The notes under the pieces are model-generated. The model was given only the letters and a program-made list of their open reading frames with translations. It made no database searches and was not told where the DNA came from. A program made the translations under genes and the position numbers. A stretch of DNA of 64,000 nt from IMG/VR virus record IMGVR_UViG_3300028886_000001; one strand, written 5' to 3'. Source of the DNA: a virus (lineage: Duplodnaviria > Caudoviricetes). Below, piece by piece: positions 782 through 62,817 of this stretch (the first letter of the stretch is position 1; each line of letters starts with the position of its first letter).

Positions 782-793
782 AACATATTAATA
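782..793 (+). promoter_or_regulatory. Late-type promoter AACA-N6-TA
   Basis: AACAtattaaTA upstream of the SD and ATG at 819. It matches the AR9 late consensus and is one of 24 such sites I located. Confidence 0.7.
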
Positions 794-818
794 TTATAAA
801 GAAAGGAGGAATTATATT

Positions 819-1556
819 ATGGCAAAACTTACTAAGAAACAAAGACAAGATATAGAAGCTTTAATATTAGAAGTGTTTTATACTATAGATAAATCAAATA
901 CTAATACAGATCATTATAAGAAACTATTTGCTAAGATGACAGATGATCAATTCTATAAATTTATATCTGCTAAATTCCCATATAGATTTCATGAGAAACC
1001 ATTTGTCACAGAACCATCTATGCATGAATGTAGAGTAGCTTTAGAAAAGATAGGAAAAGAACCTTTATATTGTAAAGTAAACTTACCTTATCTGTATACT
1101 AATAAAGATGGTGTACCAGTAAATACTAGAGAAACATTAGTAGTATGGATACCATTAAAGAAAGTTAAACAGTTTTTAACTAAGAAGAACTCTATGTCTA
1201 TAGATATATCTACAAGAGATATGAAGACTGGTTTATTAACTGGTGTAGATAAGAATGGTAAAACATCAGATAGAGAAATGGAATCATTAGCTGTTGCTGG
1301 ATTAGATGCTACTATAAATGAATTCTCTAAATATAGAGCAGATTCTATGAATGCTAAGAATGAACTATATAATTTAATAAATATAAATGGTACTGTTACT
1401 CAGAAAGAAGTACCAGTAGATATAGATGATTCTTTATCTAAGAATTTATTAAATACTTATCTTATTGGATCTGGATTCAATTCTAATTTAATCAATCAGG
1501 GTTATTACTTACCATATACTATAAAGAACAAGCAGAAGAAGATTGAAAGGAAGTAA
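819..1556 (+). CDS. Probable virion RNA polymerase beta subunit, C-terminal piece (phiKZ gp149-like)
   Basis: LKKVKQFLTKKNSMSIDISTRDMKTGLLTG.DKNGKTSDREMESL aligns by eye to the beta C-terminal KL.H...K..AR..G......QP..G...GGQRFGEME region. It follows a late-type promoter. Confidence 0.7.
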   Translation: MAKLTKKQRQDIEALILEVFYTIDKSNTNTDHYKKLFAKMTDDQFYKFISAKFPYRFHEKPFVTEPSMHECRVALEKIGKEPLYCKVNLPYLYTNKDGVPVNTRETLVVWIPLKKVKQFLTKKNSMSIDISTRDMKTGLLTGVDKNGKTSDREMESLAVAGLDATINEFSKYRADSMNAKNELYNLININGTVTQKEVPVDIDDSLSKNLLNTYLIGSGFNSNLINQGYYLPYTIKNKQKKIERK

Positions 1557-1561
1557 TATAT

Positions 1562-1813
1562 ATGCAGACAACATTGAGAATTTATAGAGAAAGAGCACAT
1601 AGACATGATTGTAATTCATCTGAATTTATTAGACTTCTTACATTAGCAGATACTATCTATAAGCAAGAAGAAGTTACAATATTTCAATTAAATTCATATA
1701 AACAAGAATTACAACGTTCTGATATAAGAGATTATGACAATGCATTAATGGATGCATATTATTATGCTAGAGAAGCTATATATGAATTAGAGAAGAAAGT
1801 AATTAAAGAGTAA
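1562..1813 (+). CDS. Hypothetical protein
   Basis: 83-aa ORF coupled to the upstream gene and followed by a terminator. Confidence 0.6.
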   Translation: MQTTLRIYRERAHRHDCNSSEFIRLLTLADTIYKQEEVTIFQLNSYKQELQRSDIRDYDNALMDAYYYAREAIYELEKKVIKE

Positions 1814-1836
1814 GTATTATACTTACTCTTATTTTT
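1806..1836 (+). terminator. Intrinsic terminator (AAGAGTA-stem family)
   Basis: AAGAGTAAGTA-loop-TACTTACTCTT then a T tract. Confidence 0.7.
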
Positions 1837-1858
1837 CTATGATACTGTAATATATTAT

Positions 1859-1910
1859 AGTATTTGTAAAACTTCTATATTTCAATTGTATATTATTATC
1901 TTGACATAAT
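1859..1910 (+). repeat. 52-bp early-promoter leader repeat, copy 1 (copy 2 at 20471-20522)
   Basis: Two mismatches between the copies. Contains AATTGTATATTAT at 1884-1896. Confidence 0.85.
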
Positions 1911-1939
1911 CAAATAATATATAAAGGAGGATGATTATT

Positions 1940-2152
1940 ATGTCACTTAAGGATAAAGCCAGTAAAGCAGCCTGGCTTTCAGACGAGTGTGCGAAGTTAT
2001 ACGACGCCACTTGTCGTCTTGCTGCTGGTCAATCTACAGTAGAGGAGGTGGAAGCTACCATTAATTTAACCTCTACTGCAACTGCTGATGAGTATTACGA
2101 TGTATTGGATTATGCCAATGCCGTAATCTCATCTGTAAAGAAAGAGGCTTAA
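1940..2152 (+). CDS. Small early hypothetical protein
   Basis: SD AGGAGG, own early-type promoter and own terminator. Visibly more GC-rich than its neighbours. Confidence 0.7.
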   Translation: MSLKDKASKAAWLSDECAKLYDATCRLAAGQSTVEEVEATINLTSTATADEYYDVLDYANAVISSVKKEA

Positions 2153-2244
2153 GTCTCTTTCTTTTTTGTCTTTATAACATTTTATACAATTATATATTAT
2201 TATCTTGTGTGTCGAGATAGTGACACAGTTTTTTATATTAGGAG

Positions 2245-3099: not shown

Positions 3100-3157
3100 G
3101 TATAAAATAACCTATTTGATAACACATATGTAATACTTTTAAAGGAGGTGAATATTA

Positions 3158-3280
3158 ATGTACAATGAAAATGAAATAGGTGTTATCAATGAAGTTGGTG
3201 ATTTAGGATTAGGCTATACACCTTTAACTGAATCAGAAAAAGAAATGTTAAAAGAAAAAGACAACGGTAAAGAGGAATAA
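3158..3280 (+). CDS. Small acidic protein (40 aa), not in the ORF track
   Basis: AACAcatatgTA promoter at 3121, SD AAGGAGGTG, ORF MYNENEIGVINEVGDLGLGYTPLTESEKEMLKEKDNGKEE*. Confidence 0.7.
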   Translation: MYNENEIGVINEVGDLGLGYTPLTESEKEMLKEKDNGKEE

Positions 3281-3386
3281 ACCTCTTTACCCTATACCAA
3301 AGATTATTTAATTATATTATACACCTATAATAAAATAATCAAAGTCTAAAGCAGAGATTAATAATAAAAAGGGAGATGTTAACGAC

Positions 3387-4241: not shown

Positions 4242-4255
4242 GGAGTTGATTTAAG

Positions 4256-5170: not shown

Positions 5171-5256
5171 GAAGGATAGAGATATCCTTCTCTTTTTATT
5201 TTTTTATTTCAAATAGAACTTATAAGTATTAAATATATAAGGAGGTATGTATAGTA

Positions 5257-6504
5257 ATGAGTTTACTAGCAGAAAGATTTAGAGAACAAGTATCTAAACT
5301 AAAAGATTATAATATGAAAGTAGAGTCAGATTTCTCTGTTGGGTATTCAACTGGATTTCTATCATTTGATTTTAGAAATGGTACAATAGTACATGCAAAG
5401 AATGAAGCAGGAATACCATTGACTTATTATTCTGTAGGAATTACAGATGGTTCAATGGTAATGATTATAGGAAGGTCAGGTTGTGGTAAAACAACTTGGA
5501 CAATACAAGCAGCGGCTAATATAGTAAGACCTTTTAGAACTTCTTGCATATTTCATGATGACATAGAAGGTGGTATTAATGACTCTAGACTTGAACAATT
5601 AACAGGTTTTGTTGGAGAAGAGTTGAAAGGAAGATATATTATAAGAAATGTAGGTATAACTACAGAAAACTTATATCAAAGAATAAAGATAATATATGAT
5701 AATAAGAATGATCATAGAGAAGATTTCTTATATGATACAGGTTTGTATGATACTAGAGGTAATAGAATAATGAAACTAGAACCTACAGTATATATACTAG
5801 ATTCATTAGCATTATTAACACCAGAGAAATTTGCTCAAGAAGATGAACTAAGTGGTCAAATGAGTACAACTGCTACAGCTAAAGCTACAGCTATGGTATT
5901 TAGAAAGATAGTTCCAATGCTTAAATCTGTTAATATAATATTCATGGTAATAAATCATATCACTCAGAAGGTAGATATTAACCCTATGCAGAAGAAGAAA
6001 GCACAAGTATCATATCTTAAACAAGACGAAGCACTACCAGGTGGTAATACTCCAGTATATCTTGCTAATAACTTAATTAGATTTGATGATGTAACTAAGT
6101 TAAAAGAAAAAGATGGCTTTGGTGTAGATGGTTCTATAGTAGATTTAGGTTTAGTTAAATCTAGAACTAATAAAGCAGGACAAGCCGCATCTTTAGTATT
6201 CAATCAAGACATGGGATTTGACCAAGAGTTATCTTTACTACAATTATTAAAAGATAATGGTAGAGTAAATGGTGCAGGTGCTTATTTATATATAGGGGAC
6301 CATTCAGACATGAAGTTCTCTCAAAAGAAGTTTAAAGAGAAACTAGCTACAGATCCAGAATTTATGAGAGTAGTACAACAAGAAGTTATGGATGTATTAA
6401 GATTAATAATACCAGATACATCTCAAGAACAAGCTCAACAACAACAAATGTGTGCGGCTATGAGTTCTACTATATTAAATGAGATGAATAATGTTACAGT
6501 ATAG
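5257..6504 (+). CDS. recA: RecA/UvsX-like recombinase
   Basis: Walker A GRSGCGKTT, Walker B YILDSLA, INHI and PGG motifs, VKSR. Confidence 0.85.
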   Translation: MSLLAERFREQVSKLKDYNMKVESDFSVGYSTGFLSFDFRNGTIVHAKNEAGIPLTYYSVGITDGSMVMIIGRSGCGKTTWTIQAAANIVRPFRTSCIFHDDIEGGINDSRLEQLTGFVGEELKGRYIIRNVGITTENLYQRIKIIYDNKNDHREDFLYDTGLYDTRGNRIMKLEPTVYILDSLALLTPEKFAQEDELSGQMSTTATAKATAMVFRKIVPMLKSVNIIFMVINHITQKVDINPMQKKKAQVSYLKQDEALPGGNTPVYLANNLIRFDDVTKLKEKDGFGVDGSIVDLGLVKSRTNKAGQAASLVFNQDMGFDQELSLLQLLKDNGRVNGAGAYLYIGDHSDMKFSQKKFKEKLATDPEFMRVVQQEVMDVLRLIIPDTSQEQAQQQQMCAAMSSTILNEMNNVTV

Positions 6505-6518
6505 AGGGGGATTAAAGT

Positions 6519-7070: not shown

Positions 7071-7073
7071 TTA

Positions 7074-7086
7074 AATTATATATTAT
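7074..7086 (+). promoter_or_regulatory. Early-type promoter AATTATATATTAT
   Basis: Exact motif upstream of the non-virion RNAP beta-C gene, followed by a hairpin. Confidence 0.7.
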
Positions 7087-7142
7087 ATACAAGTATGCAA
7101 GTACTTGTATATAATTTTGTAAAAAGGAGGATATAAATTTTT

Positions 7143-9335
7143 ATGGCAGAAGGAAATATGAACTTTGTTCAAGACATGGAAGAAGAAGCAAAAAGAATAA
7201 CAAGTTTAGAGCAAATGGCTGGAAAAGGATTGATGATGCCATTTAATCCATCAAATTCTGGTCCAAGAAAAATAATGCAATCAACCTTTGTAGAACATCT
7301 ATTATCATTAGAAAATCCAGAGCCACCATTAATTGGTACAGGTTATGAATTTAGATTTGGCGAACATTCTTCATCTTATAATATAGCTGAAGATGATTTT
7401 GCTATACTGCATAGAATAGAGAAGTTTAGTTTTGCACATGGTAATCATTATTTTCTAATTATTCAAAACCATAGGACAGGAGAATATGATGTTATTGAGA
7501 GAAAGTCTTATAAGTACATCGGAGAGTCTTATACCTATAGTTATAACAATTCTTATTTAGATAAGAAATCTGTAGGAGATGTTATACAGAAAGGAGATGT
7601 ATATCAGAAGAGTACTGCGTTTGATGAAAATAATAATAGGCAGGATGGTGTTAATCTTCTTACTGGATATATATCTTGCGAGCTTAATAAAGAAGATGGA
7701 GTCATAATATCTGAAACAGCTTCTAAGAAATTAGCAGCTCCTACAATGAAAATGGTAAATATCATTATTAATGATAATGATATACCAATAAACCTATATG
7801 GGGATGACAGTTGTTATAAATGTATGCCGAATGTAGGTGAGTATATTCAAAATGGAGTATTACTAGCGTTAAGAAGAAATAAGAAAGATGAAGCCTTATT
7901 CAGTCAGAGTAGAGAAAGACTAAGAGGAACATTCATCTCAGATGATCAATTCTTAGCACAAGGACAAGTAGTTGATATTGATATATATTGTAATAACCCA
8001 GAGTTATTAGCAACTTATGAATACAATGATCAACTAAGATATTATTATGATGATGATATGAGGTTTAGAAGAGAATTCAATTCTAAAGTAAGACCTTATA
8101 TCTTAGAAAGAAAGTGTAGTTATAGACTACAAAAGATATATTATAATAATGAAAAGATATTAAATGGAGGACAGTTTATAAGAGATGCTAAACCACCTTC
8201 TTTTGTATCACTTACATTATATGTAAAGGATGTAATAGATGCTAAACAAGGAGATAAAATAGCAAATAGATATGGAGGTAAAGGTGTTATATCTGTAGTA
8301 CTTCCAGATGAAATGATGCCTATGTTATCTAATGGAGAAAGGCTAGAATGTATACAAAATCCAGAGGGTTGTCCAAATAGAGAAAATCCAGGTCAGTTAT
8401 TTGAGCAAACTATAAATCAAGTTGGTTCTAGAATAATTGATTATATAGGAGAAGCCATATTACATCAAGATGAATGTCTAGAGCTATATCTAGAATATCT
8501 TAAAGAGGTATCTCCACAGCAATATATAGAGATAGTAAAGTATTTATCTGAATCAGATTTAACAGAAGATGATAAGCAATATTTATTAAATTCTGTTTTA
8601 GATGATAATGGAATAGCTGTATCTTTAAGACCTATTACAGATAATATGTCTTTAGATAAATTAGCATCTTTAATTCATAAGTTCCCATTTGCTAAGCCTT
8701 ATACTATTACTGTACCACAAAGAGATTCTAATGGTAATATAAGATATATCGAAGCTAGAAGACCAATAACCTGTGGTAGAATATATATGTATAGAATGAA
8801 GCAATATGCAGAAGAGAAATTCTCTGCTGTTAGTTTATCTGCTACTAATAATAAGAATGAGAATAGCAGAACTTCTAAGAAGAACTTTAAATCTATATAT
8901 GCTAAAACACCTATAAAGTTTGGAGAAATGGAGTCAGGAGACTTATCTCATATGGGTGTAGAGAATGTAATAACTGGTTTGATGCTGTATTCTGCATCAC
9001 CTTGGGGAAGACGTTTAACTGAAGAACTTATAACAGGAGACCCATTTGATGTAGACGTTAAATTAGATGATAGATCTAGAAATAGATCAGTAGAGATTCT
9101 TAATGCATATCTTACTACTATAGGATTAAAGTTAGATTTTGAGAAAGTTCCTAAGATAAAGAAAAAGATATGGAAGAGAAAAATACTTACTTTCCATAAA
9201 TCACCAGAGAATATTGGTAAGAAGAAGAAAGTATGGCATAAACTAAATGCTTGGGAAAAACCAGATATGAGTCTTGTTAAGGGAGACGGGAAGCTTCATA
9301 TTTGGAAGAAATCTGTATTTAAACATAAGAGGTAG
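7143..9335 (+). CDS. Non-virion RNA polymerase beta subunit, C-terminal half
   Basis: NKEDG, GDKIANRYGGKGVIS, NPEGCPNRENPGQLFE, YMYRMKQ, PIKFGEMES. Confidence 0.9.
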   Translation: MAEGNMNFVQDMEEEAKRITSLEQMAGKGLMMPFNPSNSGPRKIMQSTFVEHLLSLENPEPPLIGTGYEFRFGEHSSSYNIAEDDFAILHRIEKFSFAHGNHYFLIIQNHRTGEYDVIERKSYKYIGESYTYSYNNSYLDKKSVGDVIQKGDVYQKSTAFDENNNRQDGVNLLTGYISCELNKEDGVIISETASKKLAAPTMKMVNIIINDNDIPINLYGDDSCYKCMPNVGEYIQNGVLLALRRNKKDEALFSQSRERLRGTFISDDQFLAQGQVVDIDIYCNNPELLATYEYNDQLRYYYDDDMRFRREFNSKVRPYILERKCSYRLQKIYYNNEKILNGGQFIRDAKPPSFVSLTLYVKDVIDAKQGDKIANRYGGKGVISVVLPDEMMPMLSNGERLECIQNPEGCPNRENPGQLFEQTINQVGSRIIDYIGEAILHQDECLELYLEYLKEVSPQQYIEIVKYLSESDLTEDDKQYLLNSVLDDNGIAVSLRPITDNMSLDKLASLIHKFPFAKPYTITVPQRDSNGNIRYIEARRPITCGRIYMYRMKQYAEEKFSAVSLSATNNKNENSRTSKKNFKSIYAKTPIKFGEMESGDLSHMGVENVITGLMLYSASPWGRRLTEELITGDPFDVDVKLDDRSRNRSVEILNAYLTTIGLKLDFEKVPKIKKKIWKRKILTFHKSPENIGKKKKVWHKLNAWEKPDMSLVKGDGKLHIWKKSVFKHKR

Positions 9336-9345
9336 GTGAAAAAAT

Positions 9346-11625: not shown

Positions 11626-11733
11626 TAGTGAAGCGTAAAAAAATATTACGCTTCTCACATTTAAATAAGGTTATAATTATATATTATAATTAAGATAAAT
11701 AAATATCCAAAAAATAAAGGGAGGAAAATTAAT

Positions 11734-12333: not shown

Positions 12334-12385
12334 TAAATGTAAACAACTCGTATGTGTAAGCATACGAGTTTAATTTTTTATAGAG

Positions 12386-13036
12386 GTGAGAAATATTATG
12401 AAAAAGATCTTTATAAACGATGAAGTCTATGATGTAGTAGAGCCAGAGGCTTATTACAGTAATAAAAAGTACTATGAAAAATCCAATGTAGCTATAGAAA
12501 AGGATGGTATAGTATATCCTATTATACCTAAATATTCTAAAGAACCTGGTGCAGTAGATAAAACTGTATGGTTGGAATTTAGAGATCCACCAGAAGAAGA
12601 GAAAGATAAATATTCTACAAATAATATACTAGATTTTGGAGCAGCTAAAGACTTAGCAGATATATATAAATTAAATGAAGAATATTCTGCTATAGAAAGA
12701 AGAATAATGACAGACCCAGAAGATAACTTTAAGCCACCTGTTTCTAAACAAGATTCTCCAGAAATGATGGCTTTAAAACAAGCAGTTAGTGATAAGAATA
12801 TAAATATAAAAGCTTATGAGAGAAGGTTTGGACCTACTTATGAGAATGATATAAGAATATTTAATGGTCATAAAATCACTTTAAGAAAGTTAAGAGAGAT
12901 GTGTAATGCATTAGACATTCAAGCTAAATTAACTTTATGCGATATATCTCCTGATGTAGAGAATCCTATGGGCACTGAAATAACTGTTAATATTACAGGA
13001 AAGGGGAAAGATCCAAATGAGGGTAACTCAATCTGA
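12386..13036 (+). CDS. Hypothetical protein with possible HTH in the C-terminal half
   Basis: ITLRKLREMCNALDI resembles the end of a Cro/XRE-type HTH. Overlaps the RNAP beta-N gene. Confidence 0.55.
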   Translation: MRNIMKKIFINDEVYDVVEPEAYYSNKKYYEKSNVAIEKDGIVYPIIPKYSKEPGAVDKTVWLEFRDPPEEEKDKYSTNNILDFGAAKDLADIYKLNEEYSAIERRIMTDPEDNFKPPVSKQDSPEMMALKQAVSDKNINIKAYERRFGPTYENDIRIFNGHKITLRKLREMCNALDIQAKLTLCDISPDVENPMGTEITVNITGKGKDPNEGNSI

Positions 13037-14774
13037 ATTAATCAAAAGATACAATGATGAAAACCGAGAACAATTTAATCCTAAATTGTTTGAACGTAGT
13101 GATGACAAGTTAATAGAAGCTTTAGAAACAGCTATATTATCTTGCCAAAGAGAACAGAATTTTACTATAAAGGTGCAAAGCTTCACAGTAATAAAAGAAT
13201 ACTCAGCAATAATGGGTATTATGAAGTATTATGAAGATAAGCATGGACGTAATAGAAGAAAAAGAAAGGTCAATCAATATGATTATGTAGATCTTAAAGA
13301 TTCTGATGTTATACTTCTAGTAGTTACTTATCTTATAGGAGCTAAAGATCAATGGAAGACATTAACTTCATATATCTTAGTACCTATAGTTGTAGAGAAG
13401 TATTACTATAAGATATTTGGGAATATGTATTCTTCAATATATCAAATAGTAGATGGTTCTGTTTATAATAATTCTTTAAAAGCAAATAGGAAATATCCAG
13501 CTGTGATAATGAAAACATTGTCACATCCTGTTAATATAAAGAGAACTAAGTATAAATTAAATACTATGGATGGAAGTATTTTAGAAGTAAATAATTATGA
13601 AGTATTAGTATTTAGAAAGAACTTTGGTATAATGAAGTACTTCCTTGCTAAGTATGGTATATATGATGTATTATATTTCTTAGGACTAAAGTATATAAAT
13701 TATAGCTATACTGATGTAAAAGATGATAGTTTATATACATTCAAATTAGGTAGTATATTTATAACAGTTCCTAAGATACTATTTGATAATGATAAAGTAA
13801 CTCAATCATTCATATATACTATGGTTACAGAGACTGCAGGTTCTTATGACATAGATGATATAGCTAGAAGAGAATTCTGGTTAAAGAAACTAGGAAAAGA
13901 ATTTGGTAGCCCAGTACCTGAAAAAGGTATATCTATTCTTAATTCATTAGAAGCTATAAGAGATATCAATACAGTAAATGAATTAGGTATACCTTTAGAA
14001 TATAAATATGATATATATTGTATTCTAAGATGGATTATAAGAGAATTTGATACATTAAAGAATAGAGATGGATTAGATTTGAAGTATAAGAGAATAAGAC
14101 TAGAAGAAGTTATAGCTTCATTATATACTTTGAAACTAAATAAATCTATATATATGCTATCAGATTTAGGAAGTAAAGTTACTGTAGATAAGATAGAGAA
14201 GTTTATAAGAACAAGACCTACTTATCTAATAGAAGCTATATGCAAATGTAATCTATCTAGTTATAGAAACCTTGTAAATGATTTAGATGCTATAACAGCA
14301 TTGAAATATACTTATAAAGGTGAAGGTGGAATAACAACTCCACAAATTCAATATAGACATGTACATCCTTCTCATATAGGAAGAGTTGATCCAGATTCAT
14401 CAACTAAATCTGATCCAGGTATGAGTGGTGTATTATGCCCATTAGTAGAAACTTATAATGGTCATTTTAGTAATTTTAAAGAACCAAATGAATGGGAGGC
14501 TAATTATGCTAATTTATTAGCTATGTATGAACAAGATCATCATCCAATGAAGCGTATATTCCATTATAATGAAAAACAATTATTTGGATTTAAAGAAGTT
14601 CTTGAAAGGCATAATAGAGATTTAGAATTACTAAAACCAGTAGAAAGAAAAGTTGTTTTCAAGAGAACAGAAAATACTAATAGATACTGGGAAGAAGAAG
14701 ACTATATTGAGCAAATAAGAAAACAGAATAATGAATATTTGAAACATCAGGAGGTAAAGAAAGATGAGTGTTAA
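13017..14774 (+). CDS. Non-virion RNA polymerase beta subunit, N-terminal half
   Basis: [26 protein letters not shown] corresponds to beta [35 protein letters not shown] corresponds to INGTERVIVSQL. Confidence 0.85.
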   Translation: [585 protein letters not shown]

Positions 14775-14985: not shown

Positions 14986-14998
14986 GGAGGTAATACTT

Positions 14999-16394: not shown

Positions 16395-16665
16395 TACATG
16401 TCACAATTGTAATGAACCTAGAGCTATAGAATGCTATGATGAATATGATGAACCTATAAGATATAGTATCTTATTAGATAAGTATCTTAAAGGGAAAGAT
16501 ATATCAGAAATAATAAACTCTAGAGTATTTACCATTATGAAGTGTTGTAAATGTGGAAAAGTTTATTGTATAGATTGGACTGGTGACTTTCCTAGACCAT
16601 TAACTAATCCAATGAAGTTAGATTGGTTCCTGTTAAACTATTATAATAATAACAATATATTGTAA
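16363..16665 (+). CDS. Zinc-finger protein
   Basis: CHNC...CCKC. Probable start MLKIWK after GAAGGTG. Confidence 0.6.
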   Translation: MLKIWKVQRYDTCHNCNEPRAIECYDEYDEPIRYSILLDKYLKGKDISEIINSRVFTIMKCCKCGKVYCIDWTGDFPRPLTNPMKLDWFLLNYYNNNNIL

Positions 16666-17726: not shown

Positions 17727-17784
17727 TTATAGGCTAATCCTTTATTTTTTATATGTTCCTTAACTAATCTATAGAGGTGATTAT

Positions 17785-20481: not shown

Positions 20482-20522
20482 AACTCCTATATTACAATTG
20501 TATATTATTATCTTGACATAAT
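20471..20522 (+). repeat. 52-bp early-promoter leader repeat, copy 2
   Basis: Matches 1859-1910 and overlaps the last codons of sbcC. Confidence 0.85.
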
Positions 20523-21738: not shown

Positions 21739-21941
21739 ATTATAACCTCCCTTAATATAGTATAATAGTATGTTGTACTATTAAAATTTTCTAAATTAGT
21801 TTTTAATTATATATTATTTAATAGAATGATGAATATAAATTATAAACCATATTACGAAGGAGTGATAAGAAAAAATGAATAAAAAGAAATTAGATAAGAT
21901 TAAAGCTAGAAAAAATAATAAGAATATATAAGAAAGGAGAA

Positions 21942-22466: not shown

Positions 22467-22516
22467 CTACAGCTATAACAAAATAATGTAAATAAATATT
22501 TAGGAGGCTTTAAACA

Positions 22517-23955: not shown

Positions 23956-24051
23956 TAATTGTGCTCTTCTTTATTTTTTATGTCTCCAACAACATTTATA
24001 TAGATATCTAATCATATGATATTACATTAAATTAAGAAAGGAGCACACAAA

Positions 24052-27243: not shown

Positions 27244-27323
27244 TAGTCTTACTCTTTATTTTTTCGCTTAAATACCTAATAGCTAAACATTACATTAATA
27301 CAAAGTTATAGGAGGTTTAAAGT

Positions 27324-30546: not shown

Positions 30547-30563
30547 TGTATTTCACCTCCATA

Positions 30564-32744
30564 TTAAACTGTTGTATTTGAACTAGAATTTTCATTTCCT
30601 AGTACATATACTTTAATATATTCAGATTGAATGAAGTCTCTACATTGTACTTTTAATGCTGCATAGAATATCTTATTAGCTACCATAGTTTCATCTTGGA
30701 TATAAGTTAAAGCTAAAGTAGTAAAGTTAGTCATATAGCTATTAAGTAATGTATTTACATCATTTTGATAAGTTTGTAAATCTGTTTGGTCTAAGAATGA
30801 ATATCTATTCTTTGGACAATACTTTCTTATAGCTTTTACAACTTCTTGTATAGCAAGAACGTTATTAATATAAGAAAGTTGAGAATTTACATCTTGAGAA
30901 GTAAATATAGTTTCTAAAGTTAATGTATTATTAATATAAGAAGCATAGTTTACTCTCATATCATATAACTTTTCTTTATTATTCTTCTTAGGAGTAACAG
31001 TAGGAATGAAATTAACTGTTCCTTTAATTGCTTCAGGAATTGTAGCTCCATTTCTTGAACCAGCAGCTGGTAATATTCTACCATTTCTAAATATATTTAT
31101 CATGATTCTTGTTAAGCTATATCCAACAGTAACAGATATTTGTCTCTTACTGAAAGGATCTACTATATCATAAGATAAATGATAGTTAGCTATATATCTG
31201 CTCTTTGAGTAGTTTTCAGATATACTCTTTATAGCTTCTACTGTCTTTACATTTAATCCCATATCTCTAAGATATACGAAATCTTCTCTATAATCTGCTA
31301 AGTCAGCTATAGCTTTCTTAGTATTCTTAGGGAAGTTAGCATCAACACAAAGGTCAATTGGATAATTATCTAAATCATAGATATCATCAGTTACATCTCC
31401 ATTGAAGAATTTAGTCATTGCTCTTTCATATGGTGTATCATCTTCAGAACTGAATGGTGCATCTCCTAATTCACCATTATCACCATTATCTAAAGTTAAA
31501 CCATAAGTATAACTTAAGTTTACTGTATCAGTACCAACTTTTGAATCATCAGTATCTACAGTAATAACTGGTATAGCATCTCCATTTTTTGTATTACCGA
31601 ATAATATATCTTGATGTAAGAAATATTCAGCAGTATAATCAGTAGATACATTTGGTACATTAGCTACTAAATCTGCAATCTTAGTAGTAAATGCGTTTAT
31701 TTTATCTTCATATTCTTTAGCTTGAGATTGTTCTGAATAGTTCTTAATAACGTTTTGAATAGATTTATTTATACCTTCTGTATCAGATACAACTGCACAG
31801 TCTAGTGTAAAGTCTATCTTTTCAAGAACATCATTTCCTTCCATTATCCAGATATAGTATTTGATTTCATCAGAATACTTACTGTTTATATAGTCAGGAA
31901 TAATTCTGAATTTCTTAGCACTCTTACCTCTACCATTATCAGTTATAGTAAATAATGGATATAAGAATGTGCCTTCTTCAGTTTCACTTTCAGCTTTAGA
32001 ATATTTAGCTTTAATAGCATTAGCTACTTCATCAACATTTCTCATATTTTCAATAGAATCTGTAATATAAGATATATTAACTCCTGTAACAGTAGTTGAT
32101 TCTACTTGAATTGGATCTGCTGGAATCATTGGTCGTACTGTAGTTTCTAATCCTGTATTAGGATCTAGATATAATACATTATCTGATTCATTTGTCTTAG
32201 TAACAGCTAAAGGAACTGCATCTTCAGATGGTTTAACTGGTGTTCGTAATCCAGTTGAAGGATCAAGATATAATGGTTGTCCAGCTTCATTAACAACAGT
32301 TATTTTTATAGGATCTGCTCCTATAGTTGGTTGTGTTGTTGTTTCTAATCCTGTTACTGGATCTTTGTATAGTTTCTTACCATCAGCATCTACTTTATCT
32401 GTATAAGTCTTTTCAACTTTTTGAGATACTTTAGCAACAACAGTTTTGTTAGCTAGTGCAGCATCATCTGCTACTATTCTCTTTGCCAAAACAACTCCAC
32501 CATTGTTTACAATATAAGCAGCTTGTAGTAATGGTTGTCCATGTTTAGCAAAAGAAATATTATTTCCGTATCTATTGAAGAATGTATTTCTTGTACTTAC
32601 CATCATTTCTTCTGGACCTTTATCAGATGTAAAAGCTGTAAAGAACAATGGAACTTCATAAATACTTGTAGTATTTACATTACCGATTTGAGATTGGTCT
32701 ACCCATTCAATTTGAGTATTAGGGTATCTATAAATATTAGCCAT
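30564..32744 (-). CDS. Contractile tail sheath protein
   Basis: YP...IEWVDQS, SDKGPE, HGQPLLQA, AKRIVA.DA, C-terminal LYDMRVNY...SQ...SQLSYINNV. Late promoter at 32802-32813. Confidence 0.85.
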   Translation of the reverse strand: MANIYRYPNTQIEWVDQSQIGNVNTTSIYEVPLFFTAFTSDKGPEEMMVSTRNTFFNRYGNNISFAKHGQPLLQAAYIVNNGGVVLAKRIVADDAALANKTVVAKVSQKVEKTYTDKVDADGKKLYKDPVTGLETTTQPTIGADPIKITVVNEAGQPLYLDPSTGLRTPVKPSEDAVPLAVTKTNESDNVLYLDPNTGLETTVRPMIPADPIQVESTTVTGVNISYITDSIENMRNVDEVANAIKAKYSKAESETEEGTFLYPLFTITDNGRGKSAKKFRIIPDYINSKYSDEIKYYIWIMEGNDVLEKIDFTLDCAVVSDTEGINKSIQNVIKNYSEQSQAKEYEDKINAFTTKIADLVANVPNVSTDYTAEYFLHQDILFGNTKNGDAIPVITVDTDDSKVGTDTVNLSYTYGLTLDNGDNGELGDAPFSSEDDTPYERAMTKFFNGDVTDDIYDLDNYPIDLCVDANFPKNTKKAIADLADYREDFVYLRDMGLNVKTVEAIKSISENYSKSRYIANYHLSYDIVDPFSKRQISVTVGYSLTRIMINIFRNGRILPAAGSRNGATIPEAIKGTVNFIPTVTPKKNNKEKLYDMRVNYASYINNTLTLETIFTSQDVNSQLSYINNVLAIQEVVKAIRKYCPKNRYSFLDQTDLQTYQNDVNTLLNSYMTNFTTLALTYIQDETMVANKIFYAALKVQCRDFIQSEYIKVYVLGNENSSSNTTV

Positions 32745-32821
32745 GTTTATACCTCCTTTAATTTCAATTAATAGAATTAATCAACTTTATTAATTAAATC
32801 TTATTCTTATGTTATTTTACA

Positions 32822-33544: not shown

Positions 33545-33658
33545 ATATATTCACCTTCCTTTTAATTTACTTATATAAATGTGTGTTAAATATTTAAACA
33601 TATAAATAAAATTGTAATTAATATAAAATGTTTAACTCCTTCCTTAATATTTTAAAAA

Positions 33659-34693: not shown

Positions 34694-34794
34694 AATTTTA
34701 ACCTCCTTATAAATATATTTATAAGATCTTAAGACCTTTACTATATTGTTCACGTTTATATGCATGAATCAGTATAGTAAAGGTCTAGTTAAAA

Positions 34795-36711: not shown

Positions 36712-36783
36712 AAATTTATATCCTCCTTTTATTAAATATATTAATGTGTTTATGCCATGGTAAAAAAAGACAAGCATAGAGAT

Positions 36784-38841: not shown

Positions 38842-38923
38842 TATATTCCCTCCTTTTGTATATATATTATAAAAATGTTGAAAATAAAGAGAATGGGAGT
38901 TTAGCCCCATTCTCTTTAATATA

Positions 38924-41326: not shown

Positions 41327-41743
41327 TTATAGATTGTTCCATAATTTATCTATATACTCTGTTGTTATAACAAATTTCGGATTAGATATCAAAATATCTA
41401 AATTTACTTTACTATTAAAATACATAATAAATGAATTTTGTTTATATATTATCTGTTTTACCCCTGTAATACCACCAGTAGAATCTATTAGAGTTACATC
41501 TACATCTTGTATTCCCATATTGTGTTCTACTGTGCATTGATATAATGCATCTATACTTTTATCTGTATTAGATGTCCAATCTGCAATTTTAACTGACTTA
41601 GATATACTAGGTATATTTTCATTAGAAGTTAATTTCTTTAAAGATACATCTAAAGTTTCATTTCCATTAACAATATTAGTTGTTGATGTCTTTGGGTATA
41701 TCTCTTCTTTTTGATCGTTTCTTAATATAACTCTTTTTGCCAT
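41327..41743 (-). CDS. Small fibre-associated protein
   Basis: IYPKT N-terminal motif, TVEHNMG..DVDVTL.D motif. Confidence 0.6.
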   Translation of the reverse strand: MAKRVILRNDQKEEIYPKTSTTNIVNGNETLDVSLKKLTSNENIPSISKSVKIADWTSNTDKSIDALYQCTVEHNMGIQDVDVTLIDSTGGITGVKQIIYKQNSFIMYFNSKVNLDILISNPKFVITTEYIDKLWNNL

Positions 41744-45077: not shown

Positions 45078-45156
45078 TATAACCACCCCTTTTTTAATTT
45101 AGTTTTATTAAGATGTTCACCCAAATAAAGAAAGAGAATAGCATTAAGCTATTCTC

Positions 45157-47256: not shown

Positions 47257-47385
47257 ATTAAATAATCACTCTCCTTTAATATTCTTAATCATACCTATTT
47301 ACGTATATATAGATACATATATTTGTTATAGATAGAGTATTTTTATAAAAGAGTAACTTTAGAGTATATAAAGGAGGTAAGTATT

Positions 47386-48157: not shown

Positions 48158-48235
48158 GAAAGTTTAAAAAGCTTTCTTATATTTTCTGCGTCGCAACATC
48201 TAATTAGAAATCAATTTAAGGAGGAATGATTAAAT

Positions 48236-50635: not shown

Positions 50636-50683
50636 ATTGTTCAACATTTAAATAAAATTATTAATAAAGGAGTGTGAATATAA

Positions 50684-52666: not shown

Positions 52667-52742
52667 TAATGAATATAAGTAACATCTAAATAAAATATTA
52701 ATTATTGATATTTGTTACTGTAAATATAAGGAGGAATTAAGA

Positions 52743-53174: not shown

Positions 53175-53246
53175 GTAATGTAAGCAATAGTTATTATACT
53201 ATTGCTTAAATGCTGTTTAACATTTTAGTGAACAAATGAAAGGAGT

Positions 53247-53606: not shown

Positions 53607-53715
53607 TTATGTAAGAGTATAGCAAAATGCTATACTCTTAATTTTTCCGTCAATTATATATTATATATTAGAATAATACTATAGAAGAAACAAATAGTTA
53701 GTATAATATAAAGGA

Positions 53716-55839
53716 GTGATATATAAAGTGTTTTACTTAGAGAATTATGGCGATTATTCAGAGTTAATAAAGAACAAGCATATTACTATTGATATGAAAA
53801 CTATCAATAGAAATACTTGGCAGATGCATTATCAATCATTATTAAATATAATGAAAGATGGAATTGAAACTGAGTATATGAGACATCCAATCATTACATT
53901 ACATTTTGATGTAATAGATGTAGATATGGCTATACCAGATGTATGGTTTAATATGATGCTATGGTATGTATTAGTAGCAGTAGATAAAGAAATTAGACCA
54001 TGTGATATAGTATTTGAAGAAGATGGTACTACTGGTAATACTATAAAAAGATTTATGGATGATAAGTTCATAGATAATTATAGAACTATGATTGATAATG
54101 TCCAAATGAATAATATAATAGATGATTGTATGTATACATTTAGACATATAGATGATTTTAGTTTCTATATAGCAAATACTGTATCATTAGATGACTTTGT
54201 AGAATTAATGGATAAGAATCCAGAATTCTATGATCTAATGCATGCAGATTTATCTCATTTACCAATAGATCAAGTTAAGATAGAAGGTACTAAACTAGCA
54301 AATCGTTCTATTGAAATAATAAAGAACTCTGATCATTGTATGTCTAATTACTTTTTAGCAGGTGAAGGTATCAATCCAAAACAATATAAAGAATTAGCTA
54401 TACATATAGGTCCTAAACCTAATGGATTAGGAGGTGTATTCCCTACTATAATAAATCATAGTTATATAAATGGTGGGGTTAAAGATCCAATGGATTATGC
54501 TATAGAAGCTAGTACAGGAAGATTAGCACAGATTATAGTAGAAGGCAATGTTGGTACTGCAGGTGACTTTGCTAGATTATTAGGATTGAATTGTATGGAT
54601 ACTACATTACACAAAGATCCTAATTATATATGTGATACTAAACATTTCCAAGAAGTAACTATAACTGAAAGAACTTTTAAGTTATTCTTAAATAGATATT
54701 TCAGATTTAGAAAAGATGGATTGGAATATAAGATTACTAAGAAGATGAAGAAAGATCTTATAGGAAAAACTATACTTCTAAGAAGTCCAATGACTTGTGC
54801 TTCCGCTGCTAGAGGAGAAGGAATATGTTATAGATGTTATGGTGATTTAGCATATACTAATAAAGATATAAATCCAGGAAGATTATCTAGTGAAGAATTA
54901 TCATCTAGATTTACTCAAATGATGTTATCTGCTAAGCATTTATTAGAAGCATCTATAAGAAAGATTATATGGAGCAAAGACTTCTGGAAATATTTCGATG
55001 TAGAGTATAATATAATAACTTTAAAAGATGATTTTGACTATACTGGATATAGTATAAAGATCAATTTAGAAGATATTACATTAGAAAGAGATACAGAAGA
55101 AATTTCAGAAGGTCAATATAATGAATATATAACTTCATTTAAATTAATCTGTCCAGACGGAGACGAAATAGTATGTAATACAGCTAATGCAGATAATCTA
55201 TATATAGCTAATTCTATAAGCTCAGTTATGCAAGAATACGAAAAATCAACAAAAAAGCTTAAAGGAGTATATTCTGACGGAGAAGATATTATTATAAATC
55301 TAAATTTAATTCAAGAAAGAGACGGAATATTATTTGTAATGAATATCTTAAATAGTGATTTATCTTCTAATCTAAAGAGAGTTAAAGATATAATCAATAA
55401 GATAGAGATTACAAAGAATCTATCTAGACATGAATTATTAGAAAAGTTTAATGAAGGATTATTAGATAGTAAGATTAATCTTCAATCTGTTCATGCTGAA
55501 GTTATATTGATGAATCAGATGCGTAATGATGAGGATATTTTAGGAATGCCTAAATGGGAAAATCAAAATCCTCATTATCAGATCTTAACATTGATGCAAT
55601 CATTAGAGAACATACCTTATGTAACTAAGAGATTAAGTTATGCTAAAACAGCACAAGCATTAAGATCGCCTGTTACTTATAGATGCGAAAAACCATCTGC
55701 TATGGATGTATTCTATATGATAAATCCTCAGAAGTATATTAATAGTAAGATAGTTCCTGCTAAAGAACCAGAGTATGCTGAAAAAGGATTAAGAAAGATC
55801 TGGAATAAGATTGATAAAAATAAAGAAGAAGACGAATAA
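53716..55839 (+). CDS. Non-virion RNA polymerase beta' subunit, C-terminal part
   Basis: Bridge helix GRLAQI...VGTAGDFARLL, LRSPMTC...GICYRCYG zinc site, trigger loop FTQMMLSAKH, VHAEVIL. No DxDGD, so the catalytic piece lies outside the window. Early motif at 53652-53664. Confidence 0.88.
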   Translation: MIYKVFYLENYGDYSELIKNKHITIDMKTINRNTWQMHYQSLLNIMKDGIETEYMRHPIITLHFDVIDVDMAIPDVWFNMMLWYVLVAVDKEIRPCDIVFEEDGTTGNTIKRFMDDKFIDNYRTMIDNVQMNNIIDDCMYTFRHIDDFSFYIANTVSLDDFVELMDKNPEFYDLMHADLSHLPIDQVKIEGTKLANRSIEIIKNSDHCMSNYFLAGEGINPKQYKELAIHIGPKPNGLGGVFPTIINHSYINGGVKDPMDYAIEASTGRLAQIIVEGNVGTAGDFARLLGLNCMDTTLHKDPNYICDTKHFQEVTITERTFKLFLNRYFRFRKDGLEYKITKKMKKDLIGKTILLRSPMTCASAARGEGICYRCYGDLAYTNKDINPGRLSSEELSSRFTQMMLSAKHLLEASIRKIIWSKDFWKYFDVEYNIITLKDDFDYTGYSIKINLEDITLERDTEEISEGQYNEYITSFKLICPDGDEIVCNTANADNLYIANSISSVMQEYEKSTKKLKGVYSDGEDIIINLNLIQERDGILFVMNILNSDLSSNLKRVKDIINKIEITKNLSRHELLEKFNEGLLDSKINLQSVHAEVILMNQMRNDEDILGMPKWENQNPHYQILTLMQSLENIPYVTKRLSYAKTAQALRSPVTYRCEKPSAMDVFYMINPQKYINSKIVPAKEPEYAEKGLRKIWNKIDKNKEEDE

Positions 55840-55889
55840 TCTTCTTCTTTCTTTTTTGTAATTGATAAATATTTCAATTATATATTATA

Positions 55890-56100: not shown

Positions 56101-56183
56101 GTCAAAAATCAATATAATTATATATTATATATGTGTCATAAGAGTCATATGACAAATACAAATATTATGGAGGGAATTTAACC

Positions 56184-57830: not shown

Positions 57831-57976
57831 AATAAAGGGTGGTAAAACACCCTTTATTTTTTCTATGTTACACTATGCCATTGTATAGTATTTTAATTAT
57901 ATATTATTATCTTGTCATAATACATATATGTATATATCCTGAAGTATACATAAATAAAATAATGGAGGTGATTATT

Positions 57977-58828: not shown

Positions 58829-58895
58829 AATAATAAGAGGGATTCGCCACCCTCTTATTATTTTTTTGTATGTACCTTAACACATTAATAAAGGA

Positions 58896-60536: not shown

Positions 60537-60663
60537 GAGTAAGCGTAATTTGCTTACTCTTATTTTTTTGCCATTATAATATATTTCAATTATATATTAT
60601 TATCTTGTCATAGAAAATTAATTAAGCAAATAAATTAAAAAAATATAAAAGGAGATGATTACT

Positions 60664-61965
60664 ATGACAATGAATAAAAAGGTAGATTTCCAAGCAGTAA
60701 AGACAGGATTGGTATTCTTCCCAGAAGAAGTTAAAAATGAGATCATGAAAGGTCTCAAAGCTACAAGATATATCTTTAACGGGTGTGTTGACGAGCACCC
60801 AATGGTAATGTATACCAATAAGATAGATTACATAAATAGTAATCTAGCAGGCACTACATTTAAGATAAAGTCTTTGGATATCAATGATATCAATAGAGAG
60901 TTTATCAATTTTATGGCAAACTTTTTTGAGAAATATTCTCAAAAACTTGCTTCTGCAACTAGGGCAATCAACAACTTTAGTGATGATGAAGTTGCCGATT
61001 GCATTAATAAATTTACAGGTGATGCTTGTATTGCAGAGGTACTTTTCGATGCTTCAGCATTAGACAAAATTATAAACGAAGCATTAAAAAGTCAAAGTAA
61101 GAAAAAACTTTTAGAGGAAACTCCAGACGTTATTGATGTTGAAAATGCCATCGACATCAATAAGGAAATTGACAAAGAAGCTTCTGAAGGAGAGCTTCCA
61201 GTTCCAGATGAAATTATAGATACAGAAGAAATTCCAGATGAAGAAGTTATGAATGATGCAGAAATAAAAGAAGAAAAGAAAGAAGAAACAATAGTTTCAT
61301 CATCTTCTGAAGCTGCAGAAGGATTTATCACTGATGAAAAATTGCTTGAAAAGGTAGGTGATAAATTCTTTGAAGAGGCTAAAGACAAGATTAACAGAAT
61401 TGTCAAAAATAAATCTTTAACAAGAAAACAAAAGAAGAATAGGATTAATAGAATTGTTAGATCCTATTCTCATAAAGCTGAAGATTTTGATCCTATAAAA
61501 GAAGAAGAAATAAAAGAGAAGATCATTACAGAAACAGTAGAAGACATAAAGAAGCCTGAGACTACTATAGAAGAAAAAAATAAAGCTGTTATTGATTCTT
61601 TCCAATACCCTGAAACTAAAGACAACAGTTTTATTAAAAAGATACTTAGAGATAATATTAAAAATATTATTCTAAGTAGAGTAGATGAAGACATCTACAA
61701 AATCGAAATGCCAAGAAAGAACGGATTTACCGATATGTGTTATATCAGTTTCGGAAAGAAATCTTTCGAGATTGGTATAAGACATCAAATGACACAAGGT
61801 GCTATTATAATAGTACCTATGCCAAGCAATCCAGCTCTTGGTAACATTTCAGTGCTTAATGAACAAGTGTTTAAGGAAGTTATAGAAGTTGGCACTATGG
61901 GAATAACACAATATTCAAATTCATTCATTTCTATACCTTTCAATGTAAAAAAGAGAGCTTCATAG
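60664..61965 (+). CDS. Hypothetical protein with acidic central region (early)
   Basis: Early motif at 60588-60600, terminator after the stop. Confidence 0.7.
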   Translation: MTMNKKVDFQAVKTGLVFFPEEVKNEIMKGLKATRYIFNGCVDEHPMVMYTNKIDYINSNLAGTTFKIKSLDINDINREFINFMANFFEKYSQKLASATRAINNFSDDEVADCINKFTGDACIAEVLFDASALDKIINEALKSQSKKKLLEETPDVIDVENAIDINKEIDKEASEGELPVPDEIIDTEEIPDEEVMNDAEIKEEKKEETIVSSSSEAAEGFITDEKLLEKVGDKFFEEAKDKINRIVKNKSLTRKQKKNRINRIVRSYSHKAEDFDPIKEEEIKEKIITETVEDIKKPETTIEEKNKAVIDSFQYPETKDNSFIKKILRDNIKNIILSRVDEDIYKIEMPRKNGFTDMCYISFGKKSFEIGIRHQMTQGAIIIVPMPSNPALGNISVLNEQVFKEVIEVGTMGITQYSNSFISIPFNVKKRAS

Positions 61966-62028
61966 CTCTCTTTTATTTTTTGACTTGACCCATAACTATT
62001 AAATAATAAATATAAGGAGTTTAATATT

Positions 62029-62763
62029 ATGGATATCAATAATTACAATAAAATATCAGAGCAGATAACGATATTAGGAAATAATGCAAGTTTAAGAATG
62101 TGTACTGTCTTAACGAGAAAGACACAAGAAGGGTATAAGAAGTCATTTTATAATGAATACGAATATGGAACAGAGAAATATGTAGATGCTTCATCTATGA
62201 GAACTATAAAGAAAGATTATGATTATTTTTTGTCTTTAGAGATATTTGATACTAAAGATAATGTAATATTAAGAACTGGAGATGTATTTAGATTAAAACT
62301 TCTATTGAAAGATATATATAAATTCTATAATGATAATTCGTATGATATATTATTTGATAAGTCATCTACAAAAATATCTAAAGTGTTTAGATTAAATAAT
62401 CTACCCATGGGTAGATATGTATCATTTAAATTTTGTTTTATAAATATTGGAGATGATACAGAAGAACTAGGATTGAGAATAAGTATATCAGAGGATTCAT
62501 ACACTGATTGTACAATGAATGATTTATTTGGCTTATTATATACTATGGATTCATTAAACATGTTTCAATCTGCTCAGATAGCTGTATCATCATTACATAT
62601 AGAATTAGAAACAAATCTAAATATTATAGGAGATACATCATCATCTTCTAAAGTAAATCATAATATAGAAGAGAGAAATCAACAAGAGTTATTAGTATCA
62701 AAGAAAAGACAATTACCTAAGAAGCAATCAAGATCATTCTTCGATAAAATGGATGATATGTAA
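62029..62763 (+). CDS. Hypothetical protein
   Basis: SD AAGGAG, AACT-N6-TA at 61994. Confidence 0.7.
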   Translation: MDINNYNKISEQITILGNNASLRMCTVLTRKTQEGYKKSFYNEYEYGTEKYVDASSMRTIKKDYDYFLSLEIFDTKDNVILRTGDVFRLKLLLKDIYKFYNDNSYDILFDKSSTKISKVFRLNNLPMGRYVSFKFCFINIGDDTEELGLRISISEDSYTDCTMNDLFGLLYTMDSLNMFQSAQIAVSSLHIELETNLNIIGDTSSSSKVNHNIEERNQQELLVSKKRQLPKKQSRSFFDKMDDM

Positions 62764-62817
62764 AATTATCATATGTAAACATATTAGTACTTATTAATAT
62801 AAGGGGGTTATAAATTT

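Follow-up and report, generated by a model that had tools for sequence, protein, structure and literature searches.

The non-virion RNA polymerase (nvRNAP) of Bacillus phage AR9 is the textbook polymerase that reads the -10 element of its promoters in the template strand and requires uracil there. Late promoters of AR9 and PBS1 have the form AACA-(6N)-TA/G and are read by a five-subunit nvRNAP holoenzyme that includes gp226 (PMC5312081; PMC5449584; PMC9209446). In AR9 this element was reported at 94 mapped late transcription start sites (TSSs), its last base being +1 (PMC5312081), and 17 further late promoters are off-consensus. The AR9 early promoter was published as AAATATATATTAT-(6N)-G(+1) and is read by the injected virion RNA polymerase (RNAP) (PMC5312081). 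The template uracil at -10 lies between I207 of gp226 and R363 of betaN, with its C5 atom 3.9 angstroms from the C-beta of gp226 V206; the mutant V206G accepts thymine, and the valine has been called absolutely conserved in phages with deoxyuridine (dU) DNA (PMC9209446). A 2026 review of jumbo phages describes uracil as the way in which nucleus-less jumbo phages direct their own polymerases. Here we describe an element of the AR9 late type, AACA-N6-T(A/G), in a 64-kb stretch of the IMG/VR virus record IMGVR_UViG_3300028886_000001 (the window), together with the polymerase that would read it and the base that this DNA would carry. The reading preferred here, to which we give a probability of about 0.72, is that the element is an AR9-type late promoter read by the phage's own nvRNAP on thymine DNA.

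The window corresponds to bases 149203-213202, read on the reverse strand, of one contig (G000; 213,202 bp, 28% G+C, 72% A+T), which has direct terminal repeats and is 100% complete according to CheckV. Megablast found no close DNA-level relative among deposited phages, and single-protein searches likewise found no close relative, viral contigs being reached only via a family alignment. The AR9 genome was matched by 54 of the 204 called proteins at 20-47% identity and in long syntenic runs, and judging from these matches the phage is a distant relative of AR9 at the protein level, i.e., an AR9-related jumbo phage. The nearest relatives of its nvRNAP betaC are those of AR9/PBS1 (32%), Staphylococcus S6-like phages (30%), Listeria LPJP1 (29%) and Yersinia phiR1-37 (25%). 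The dU-DNA phages are those of the PBS1/AR9, phiR1-37 and DSS3_VP1 type, and five phages of the dU group (AR9, BpSp, LPJP1, S6 and phiR1-37) were used as references.

Gene calls were automated, and "upstream" refers throughout to the zone 15-100 nt before called starts on the sense strand, which makes up 4.1% of the sequence. Genome-wide, 60 of the 172 copies of AACA-N6-TA (35%) were located upstream, compared with 8.5% for the pooled spacings N4, N5 and N7-N10 (binomial p 4e-22); in the series from N3 to N10 the spacings other than N6 gave 5-19%. AACA-N6-TG was upstream in 17 of 74 copies. Scrambled or re-spaced control motifs reached 3-11%, and one-base variants of AACA were mostly not enriched. 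The distance from the first base of the motif to the start codon was 35-44 nt in 43 of 77 cases (p 9e-21). Altogether 73 genes had a late site, while 300 shuffles of the upstream regions gave 19.1 +/- 3.8 (maximum 31). Within genes, copies with the N6 spacing were about half as frequent as those with neighbouring spacings on either strand (sense, 66 vs 105-178; antisense, 28 vs 45-84), which fits selection against stray promoters. Plain 8-mer enrichment was swamped by T-tracts and AT-rich words, and motif discovery was instead based on an expectation-maximization (EM) search of the zero-or-one-occurrence-per-sequence (ZOOPS) type; run without priors on all upstream regions, it recovered aaCat.....Ta. 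The same gene caller and statistics applied to AR9 as a positive control placed 68 of 274 copies of AACA-N6-TA (25%) upstream, vs 3-12% for the other spacings.

The genes concerned are also those expected from AR9. The late motif was present before homologues of the portal, sheath, major head protein, prohead protease, tape measure, a virion-RNAP subunit and other virion proteins; among the homologues of AR9 virion proteins 15 of 21 had it, vs 11 of 33 other AR9 homologues (Fisher p 0.011). A preliminary description of the window had proposed AR9-type late promoters from the looser pattern AAC[AT]-N6-T[AG] and had taken positional consistency as its evidence. That pattern occurred 149 times in the window vs 262 +/- 14 in shuffles; it is under-represented, so that position alone can carry the promoter claim. 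For the AACA form position does carry it, both in the share of upstream copies and in the peak at 35-44 nt, and the unguided motif search and the positional enrichment that the same description had called for agree. With consensus, 6-nt spacing, position, placement before virion and other late genes and a number of sites per genome comparable to those of AR9/PBS1, and with every subunit of the AR9 nvRNAP represented by a homologue, AACA-N6-T(A/G) almost certainly serves as the late promoter in a transcription programme of the AR9 type with two polymerases.

Twenty-four sites had been listed in the preliminary description as standing just upstream of Shine-Dalgarno (SD) sites. All 24 12-mers occur at the coordinates and on the strands given there, and each is followed by an SD-like GGAGG. 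The fourth base divides them: 20 carry AACA, all before gene starts, and can be retained, while the four with AACT belong to a form that fails as a class. The AACA sites of the window, including copies absent from the earlier list, are as follows.

782..793, plus strand: predicted late promoter AACATATTAATA, 37 nt before the start at 819 of the AR9 gp078 homologue
3121..3132, plus strand: predicted late promoter AACACATATGTA, 37 nt before a small open reading frame (ORF) with start 3158
6443..6454, plus strand: AACA-N6-TG, not in the earlier list, a weaker candidate 76 nt before the DnaQ-like exonuclease gene (6519)
14722..14733, plus strand: AACA-N6-TG, not in the earlier list, 42 nt before ORF 14764 and within the 3' end of the betaN gene
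16651..16662, plus strand: predicted late promoter AACAATATATTG, 46 nt before start 16697
21763..21774, minus strand: predicted late promoter AACATACTATTA, 36 nt before start 21738
22477..22488, plus strand: predicted late promoter AACAAAATAATG, 40 nt before start 22517
23991..24002, plus strand: predicted late promoter AACATTTATATA, 61 nt before the gene for the N-part of DNA polymerase (24052, AR9 gp132 homologue)
27286..27297, plus strand: predicted late promoter AACATTACATTA, 38 nt before the portal gene (27324, AR9 gp128 homologue)
30562..30573, minus strand: AACA-N6-TA, not in the earlier list, 27 nt before virion-protein gene 30546 (AR9 gp127 homologue)
32802..32813, minus strand: predicted late promoter AACATAAGAATA, 69 nt before the tail-sheath gene (32744, AR9 gp126 homologue)
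33576..33587, minus strand: predicted late promoter AACACACATTTA, 43 nt before virion-protein gene 33544 (AR9 gp125 homologue)
34739..34750, minus strand: predicted late promoter AACAATATAGTA, 57 nt before the SD-supported start 34693
36739..36750, minus strand: predicted late promoter AACACATTAATA, 39 nt before start 36711
38868..38879, minus strand: predicted late promoter AACATTTTTATA, 38 nt before start 38841
41355..41366, minus strand: AACA-N6-TA, not in the earlier list, a weak candidate 94 nt before start 41272, a non-canonical distance
45106..45117, minus strand: predicted late promoter AACATCTTAATA, 40 nt before a 1102-aa ORF with start 45077
47316..47327, minus strand: late-type site AACAAATATATG, ~71 nt before 47256, the 699-aa ORF for the catalytic part of DNA polymerase (AR9 gp152 homologue)
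48195..48206, plus strand: predicted late promoter AACATCTAATTA, 41 nt before start 48236
50643..50654, plus strand: predicted late promoter AACATTTAAATA, 41 nt before start 50684
52681..52692, plus strand: predicted late promoter AACATCTAAATA, 62 nt before virion-protein gene 52743 (AR9 gp153 homologue)
53219..53230, plus strand: predicted late promoter AACATTTTAGTG, 37 nt before start 53256
53689..53700, plus strand: AACA-N6-TA, not in the earlier list, 39 nt before the nvRNAP beta'C gene and downstream of an early element
58879..58890, plus strand: predicted late promoter AACACATTAATA, 29 nt before the SF2 helicase gene (AR9 gp156 homologue)
62778..62789, plus strand: predicted late promoter AACATATTAGTA, 40 nt before start 62818

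The site at 47316 was assigned by ORF, since the gene caller had shortened the 699-aa DNA polymerase frame. The four AACT sites are the following.

5217..5228, plus strand: AACT variant, possibly a weak variant, 40 nt before the UvsX-like gene (5257)
17762..17773, plus strand: AACT variant, probably chance, 23 nt before the SbcC-like gene (17785) and adjoining the SD
47355..47366, plus strand: AACT variant, unsupported, 31 nt before ORF 47386
61994..62005, plus strand: AACT variant, possibly a weak variant, 35 nt before ORF 62029 and directly after a T-tract

Genome-wide, AACT-N6-TR was upstream in 13 of 255 copies (5%), which is the background level, and as a fourth-base variant it was rejected as a class. 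Five of the 13 upstream copies were at the canonical distance vs 16% expected, and a few CACA and GACA sites were likewise. Because of this, and because AR9 itself has off-consensus late promoters, the sites at 5217 and 61994 may be weak promoter variants. The site at 17762 is probably due to chance, given its short distance from the start and its contact with the SD.

The second element of the programme was the top motif of the EM search, aATTaTATATTAT, which can be compared with the consensus AAATATATATTAT obtained from the annotated early promoters of AR9. In its exact form, AATT[A/G]TATATTAT, it occurs 33 times in the genome, 28 of these copies being upstream of genes. A G follows TATATTAT after six bases at 30 of 42 sites, and at all eight of the early copies of the window that were assigned to genes; in five of the eight the spacer before the G is TATCTT. 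The window holds 11 exact copies, all on the plus strand, at 1884, 2188, 7074, 11675, 20496, 21805, 53652, 55876, 56116, 57895 and 60588. The copies with the spaced G are listed below.

1884..1896, plus strand: predicted early (virion-RNAP type) promoter AATTGTATATTAT-6N-G
2188..2200, plus strand: predicted early promoter AATTATATATTAT-6N-G
7074..7086, plus strand: predicted early promoter AATTATATATTAT-6N-G, before the nvRNAP betaC gene
11675..11687, plus strand: predicted early promoter AATTATATATTAT-6N-G, before ORF 11734
20496..20508, plus strand: predicted early promoter AATTGTATATTAT-6N-G, before the small ORF 20552
53652..53664, plus strand: predicted early promoter AATTATATATTAT-6N-G, before the nvRNAP beta'C gene
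57895..57907, plus strand: predicted early promoter AATTATATATTAT-6N-G
60588..60600, plus strand: predicted early promoter AATTATATATTAT-6N-G

Over the whole genome the early element stands before the genes for the gp226-like protein, betaC, beta'C and GyrB and before many small ORFs. It was present at only one of the 21 homologues of AR9 virion proteins, and the median product of genes with the early element was 154 aa vs 283 aa for genes with the late motif only. The TATATTAT core, the spacing, the G and the placement before nvRNAP genes, the gp226-like gene and small early ORFs are shared with the AR9 early promoter. On the other hand, the upstream half is AAATA in AR9 and AATT[A/G] in the present phage, which also has the recurrent TATCTT spacer. 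Seven genes carry both motifs and resemble the "continuously expressed" class of AR9, in which early and late promoters are arranged as in the pair before the beta'C gene (53652 and 53689). Taken together, the early and late elements would correspond to the early-to-late cascade of AR9, the pairing of each polymerase with its motif being inferred by homology.

The polymerase genes needed for such a cascade were found both inside and outside the window.

7143..9335, plus strand: nvRNAP betaC gene, AR9 gp089 homologue, 32% identity, E 1e-84
13017..14774, plus strand: nvRNAP betaN gene, AR9 gp105 homologue
53716..55839, plus strand: nvRNAP beta'C gene, AR9 gp154 homologue
G000 45385-46782, minus strand, outside the window: nvRNAP beta'N gene, AR9 gp270 homologue
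G000 132608-134131, minus strand, outside the window: gp226-like promoter-specificity gene, 507 aa, AR9 gp226 homologue
819..1556, plus strand: virion-RNAP subunit gene, AR9 gp078 homologue, itself a late-promoter gene

Homologues of all five nvRNAP subunits of AR9/PBS1 are thus encoded, although protein identity is only 23-47%, and the virion-RNAP subunits are represented by homologues of AR9 gp078, gp145, gp189 and gp264. A search for a gp226-like subunit had been suggested in the preliminary description and was successful. The protein has 23% identity to AR9 gp226 (tblastn E 1.5e-11), and its gene lies in the order primase-gp226-gp227-GroEL as in AR9. The gp226-like family comprises at least 257 metagenomic proteins, and a profile built from 25 of them had AR9 gp226 (7s01_A) as its sole match in the PDB (E 1e-27, residues 10-459). 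On this profile evidence the protein is a full-length homologue of AR9 gp226. PhiKZ offers a further comparison (PMC7618050; PMC12809450), since its split-subunit RNAP works on thymine DNA with a sigma-like fifth subunit, gp68, that is a distant homologue of gp226; however, its late promoters are TATG-type and not AACA-N6-TA, and the gp226-like clade profile misses gp68 in the PDB search.

Two observations concern the structure of these genes. The AR9 gp270/gp271 region, which holds nvRNAP beta'N and an intron-encoded HNH endonuclease, is matched by two separate ORFs (G000 45385-46782 and 48470-49342), and, as in AR9, a homing endonuclease may interrupt the beta'N gene or lie beside it. In about a dozen relatives (L078, L079, L083, L085, L090-L093, L095-L097) the gp226-like match ends near residue 270-310, and the gene may be split there by an intron, intein or homing endonuclease.

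The preliminary description left two options for the base that is read: either the phage has uracil in place of thymine, or its sigma-like subunit reads the same element in thymine DNA. In three characterised dU phages, dUTP is made by a zinc-dependent deaminase of the dCMP-deaminase family, and dT nucleotides are removed by Dtm or Dtt of PF06941, PF12917 or PF01725 (Li et al. 2025, PMC12697855). The zinc deaminase family PF00383 had no six-frame match at E <= 0.1 in the G000 contig, compared with five of five reference phages that have one. PF06941, PF12917 and PF01725 were all three without a match in G000. Similarly, AR9 Ugi, Dcd (gp221) and Dtm (gp151) had no tblastn match at E <= 5 in G000, where uracil-DNA glycosylase (UDG), a dUTPase of the phage's own and a homologue of the AR9 NrdE/NrdF ribonucleotide reductase were not found either. 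Two genes outside the window would instead connect the phage with thymine synthesis.

G000 75257-76435 (L014:886-2064), plus strand: ThyX gene, 392 aa
G000 117050-117820 (L121:1159-1929), minus strand: trimeric Dcd gene, 256 aa, with a predicted late promoter 47 nt upstream

The ThyX protein scored 104.7 bits against PF02511 and 106.3 bits against TIGR02170 (cut-off 87.9), and aligns to solved ThyX enzymes through the motifs RHR...SQRY, ARxxLPN and R....AQxxIR; across 60 homologues these catalytic motifs show a conservation of at least 95%. It is of a long form with an insertion of ~130 aa, containing a conserved GGSxRG patch, between the N-terminal GHESILEH segment and the RHR motif. There are at least 164 such long-form homologues (360-500 aa), some on contigs of 208-244 kb. 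The trimeric Dcd scored 137.5 bits against PF22769 and 106.9 bits against TIGR02274 (cut-off 92.8) and continues at its C-terminus for ~85 aa past the region aligned to solved enzymes. Neither PF02511 nor PF22769 was present in any of the five reference phages. The nearest solved relatives of this Dcd are 2qxx/2qlp (E 2e-19), the bifunctional dCTP deaminase-dUTPase of M. tuberculosis (PMC4827122). Next came 4xjc and the dUMP-forming 1ogh of M. jannaschii (2e-14), while the monofunctional E. coli Dcd 1xs1 reached 6e-6. From this relative similarity the enzyme may be inferred to be bifunctional, i.e., dUMP-forming. The ordinary route from dCTP to dTMP leads through a dUMP-forming Dcd that feeds ThyX, and such a route makes sense for a genome with 72% A+T.

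As the phage has its own ThyX and the known enzymes of uracil DNA were not found, thymine DNA is most likely; that the DNA of this phage contains thymine is the best reading, and in our view a highly probable one. Of the two options in the preliminary description, the uracil genome is therefore disfavoured, also by the lack of conservation of the thymine-excluding valine of gp226 discussed below, and the reading of the same element in thymine DNA is the better supported. The individual signs of uracil DNA named there gave a divided picture: a dCTP deaminase is present, but of the trimeric kind and not the zinc-dependent kind of dU phages; a phage dUTPase and a ThyA-type enzyme are absent as had been anticipated, but a thymidylate synthase is present in the form of ThyX; and the tblastn search for AR9 Ugi at E <= 5 was negative, a search that a diverse, fast-evolving inhibitor could escape.

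The pocket of the polymerase was compared by alignments with MAFFT and hidden Markov models (HMMs) anchored on W208 of gp226. The residues V-I-W of AR9, BpSp, LPJP1, S6 and phiR1-37 correspond to P-I-W in the present phage. Across the gp226-like family the V206-equivalent is variable (P, G, V, K, T, I, L, A and others), while the W is conserved. The equivalent of betaN R363 is R in AR9, LPJP1, S6 and phiR1-37 and in 9 of 14 relatives, and M in the present phage, in which betaN K375 is retained. With gp226 V206 replaced by P and betaN R363 by M, both walls of the uracil-specific pocket are substituted, which would be weak evidence for thymine reading. In AR9 gp226 one change in the 2.1bis helix, V206G, lets thymine be read at -10 (PMC9209446), and the clade lacks the conserved valine; however, V206G is a laboratory mutant, whereas in the clade the position is naturally P or variable and -11 must also accept thymine. 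The V206-equivalent was also tried as a separator of ThyX-positive from deaminase-only relatives and was rejected, as it did not track ThyX or Dcd status.

Several findings weigh against an nvRNAP promoter on thymine DNA. The V206-equivalent is V in six ThyX-positive relatives, which makes it an unreliable predictor, and proline keeps the C-beta, only V206G having been shown to admit thymine. The insertion of ~130 aa in ThyX is uncharacterised. As no phage dUTPase was found, dUTP would be produced if the trimeric Dcd were monofunctional, and tblastn could miss small, fast-evolving inhibitors, e.g., Ugi or an inhibitor of dUTPase. Moreover, neither motif was found at 100 of the 204 called genes, many of which are probably internal to operons.

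The alternative that survives best, though improbable, is dU DNA as in AR9/PBS1, with an nvRNAP that needs template-strand dU, a trimeric Dcd that gives dUTP, and unrecognised proteins that inhibit the dUTPase and UDG of the host. It would agree with promoter letters identical to those of AR9, with the fact that the nearest cultured relatives of the RNAP (AR9/PBS1, S6-like phages, LPJP1 and phiR1-37) are the dU-phage group, and with a phage that encodes an enzyme of the dCTP deaminase type and has neither dUTPase nor UDG of its own. AR9 has dU DNA, and template thymine at -11/-10 abolishes recognition by its polymerase. Against a dU genome, the present phage has a ThyX with conserved catalytic motifs, of a family not seen in the five references, and a DCD-DUT-like Dcd, and the dU pathway was not found. 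This Dcd belongs to another family than those of the dU phages, co-occurs with ThyX and is nearest to dUMP-forming enzymes. The three known families that remove dTMP/dTTP and a Ugi homologue were not found in G000, and the clade does not keep the valine for which absolute conservation among dU phages has been stated (PMC9209446). The second alternative, a different 5-substituted pyrimidine made by the long-form ThyX-like enzyme or a downstream pathway and read by the remodelled pocket, is very improbable. The conserved ThyX insertion with its GGSxRG patch, unseen in the aligned solved ThyX enzymes, and pocket residues unlike those of AR9 would be in line with it, but the protein passes the equivalog cut-off of TIGR02170 with all canonical catalytic motifs conserved, and a hydroxymethylase of ThyA type was not found (hypermodification genes were not searched for). 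Hardly credible is the third, that the motif is not a promoter but a by-product of AT-rich composition, an RNA processing or stability site, or an element of the host RNAP: short as the motif is in a 72% A+T genome, and although many sites directly follow terminator-like T-tracts, the enrichment is specific to N6 and AACA and not shared by one-base scrambles of similar composition, depends on sense strand and distance, gives way to depletion inside genes, follows a partition of gene classes as in AR9 and is conserved in 80 related loci, and there is no -35/-10 sigma-70 architecture in a phage that encodes two RNAPs.

The reading of an AR9-type late promoter on thymine DNA can also be viewed in the related clade. 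The family alignment retrieved 98 related IMG/VR contigs, so that the clade has at least 98 members, and 80 loci (1.64 Mb) were kept. In these loci AACA-N6-TA was upstream in 24% of copies vs 5-8% for other spacings, and TATATTAT in 24%. Among the 42 contigs of 200-342 kb, ThyX was found in 29, the zinc deaminase in 8 and the trimeric Dcd in 17, of which 15 also had ThyX. ThyX without the zinc deaminase characterised 26 of the 42, and the zinc deaminase without ThyX five (G001, G002, G005, G035 and G037, with loci L022, L024, L029, L080 and L087); by their gene content these five are the best candidates for true dU-DNA members. The late motif was enriched in every subgroup of the clade as divided by ThyX and deaminase status. 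Since the clade is mixed in its enzymes and AACA-N6-TA is kept in all subgroups, switches between uracil and thymine DNA may have happened within one lineage while the promoter letters remained unchanged. In the limited literature searched, no description of thymine-DNA relatives that use the AR9 promoter was met, which is not proof of novelty.

Some side observations can be added. No tRNA genes were found in the window. A homologue of the gp226-like protein and another of ThyX are labelled as derived from metagenome-assembled genomes of Paraclostridium sp., which hints at a clostridial host. In LPJP1 (MZ422438.1), the match to the zinc deaminase PF00383 at 5336-5764 on the minus strand contains two in-frame TAA stops, and its Dcd may be broken, interrupted or mis-sequenced.

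In the model that we propose, the injected virion RNAP would read AATT[A/G]TATATTAT-6N-G and so transcribe the nvRNAP genes, the gp226-like gene and many small early genes. The nvRNAP, composed of a split beta/beta' core and the gp226-like specificity subunit, would then read the late AACA-N6-T(A/G), with transcription starting at the final A or G and leaving a 5' untranslated region of ~25-33 nt that carries the SD. The trimeric Dcd would convert dCTP to dUMP and ThyX would convert dUMP to dTMP, giving a genome with thymine, unlike that of AR9, which the nvRNAP would read through its remodelled -10 base pocket (gp226 V206 to P, betaN R363 to M). Late start sites, enzyme activities and DNA base composition are, in this model, predictions from the sequence.

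Based on these results, AR9-like promoters or a Dcd gene alone are not sufficient to infer dU DNA. In practice, the early and late motifs make it possible to annotate transcription units of both classes in hundreds of genomes of uncultured jumbo phages. The odds are about even that this phage and most of its uncultured clade possess natural thymine-reading versions of a polymerase regarded as uracil-obligate, with a pocket that accepts the template-strand 3'-TTGT-5'. If so, the natural variation at gp226 V206 and betaN R363 would be a ready series for the study of 5-methyl discrimination by the pocket. Moreover, if the polymerases of this large gut-associated clade read an unchanged promoter sequence in thymine DNA with a sigma-like subunit homologous to that of AR9, the dependence on uracil would be a lineage-specific refinement and not an intrinsic property of the polymerase.

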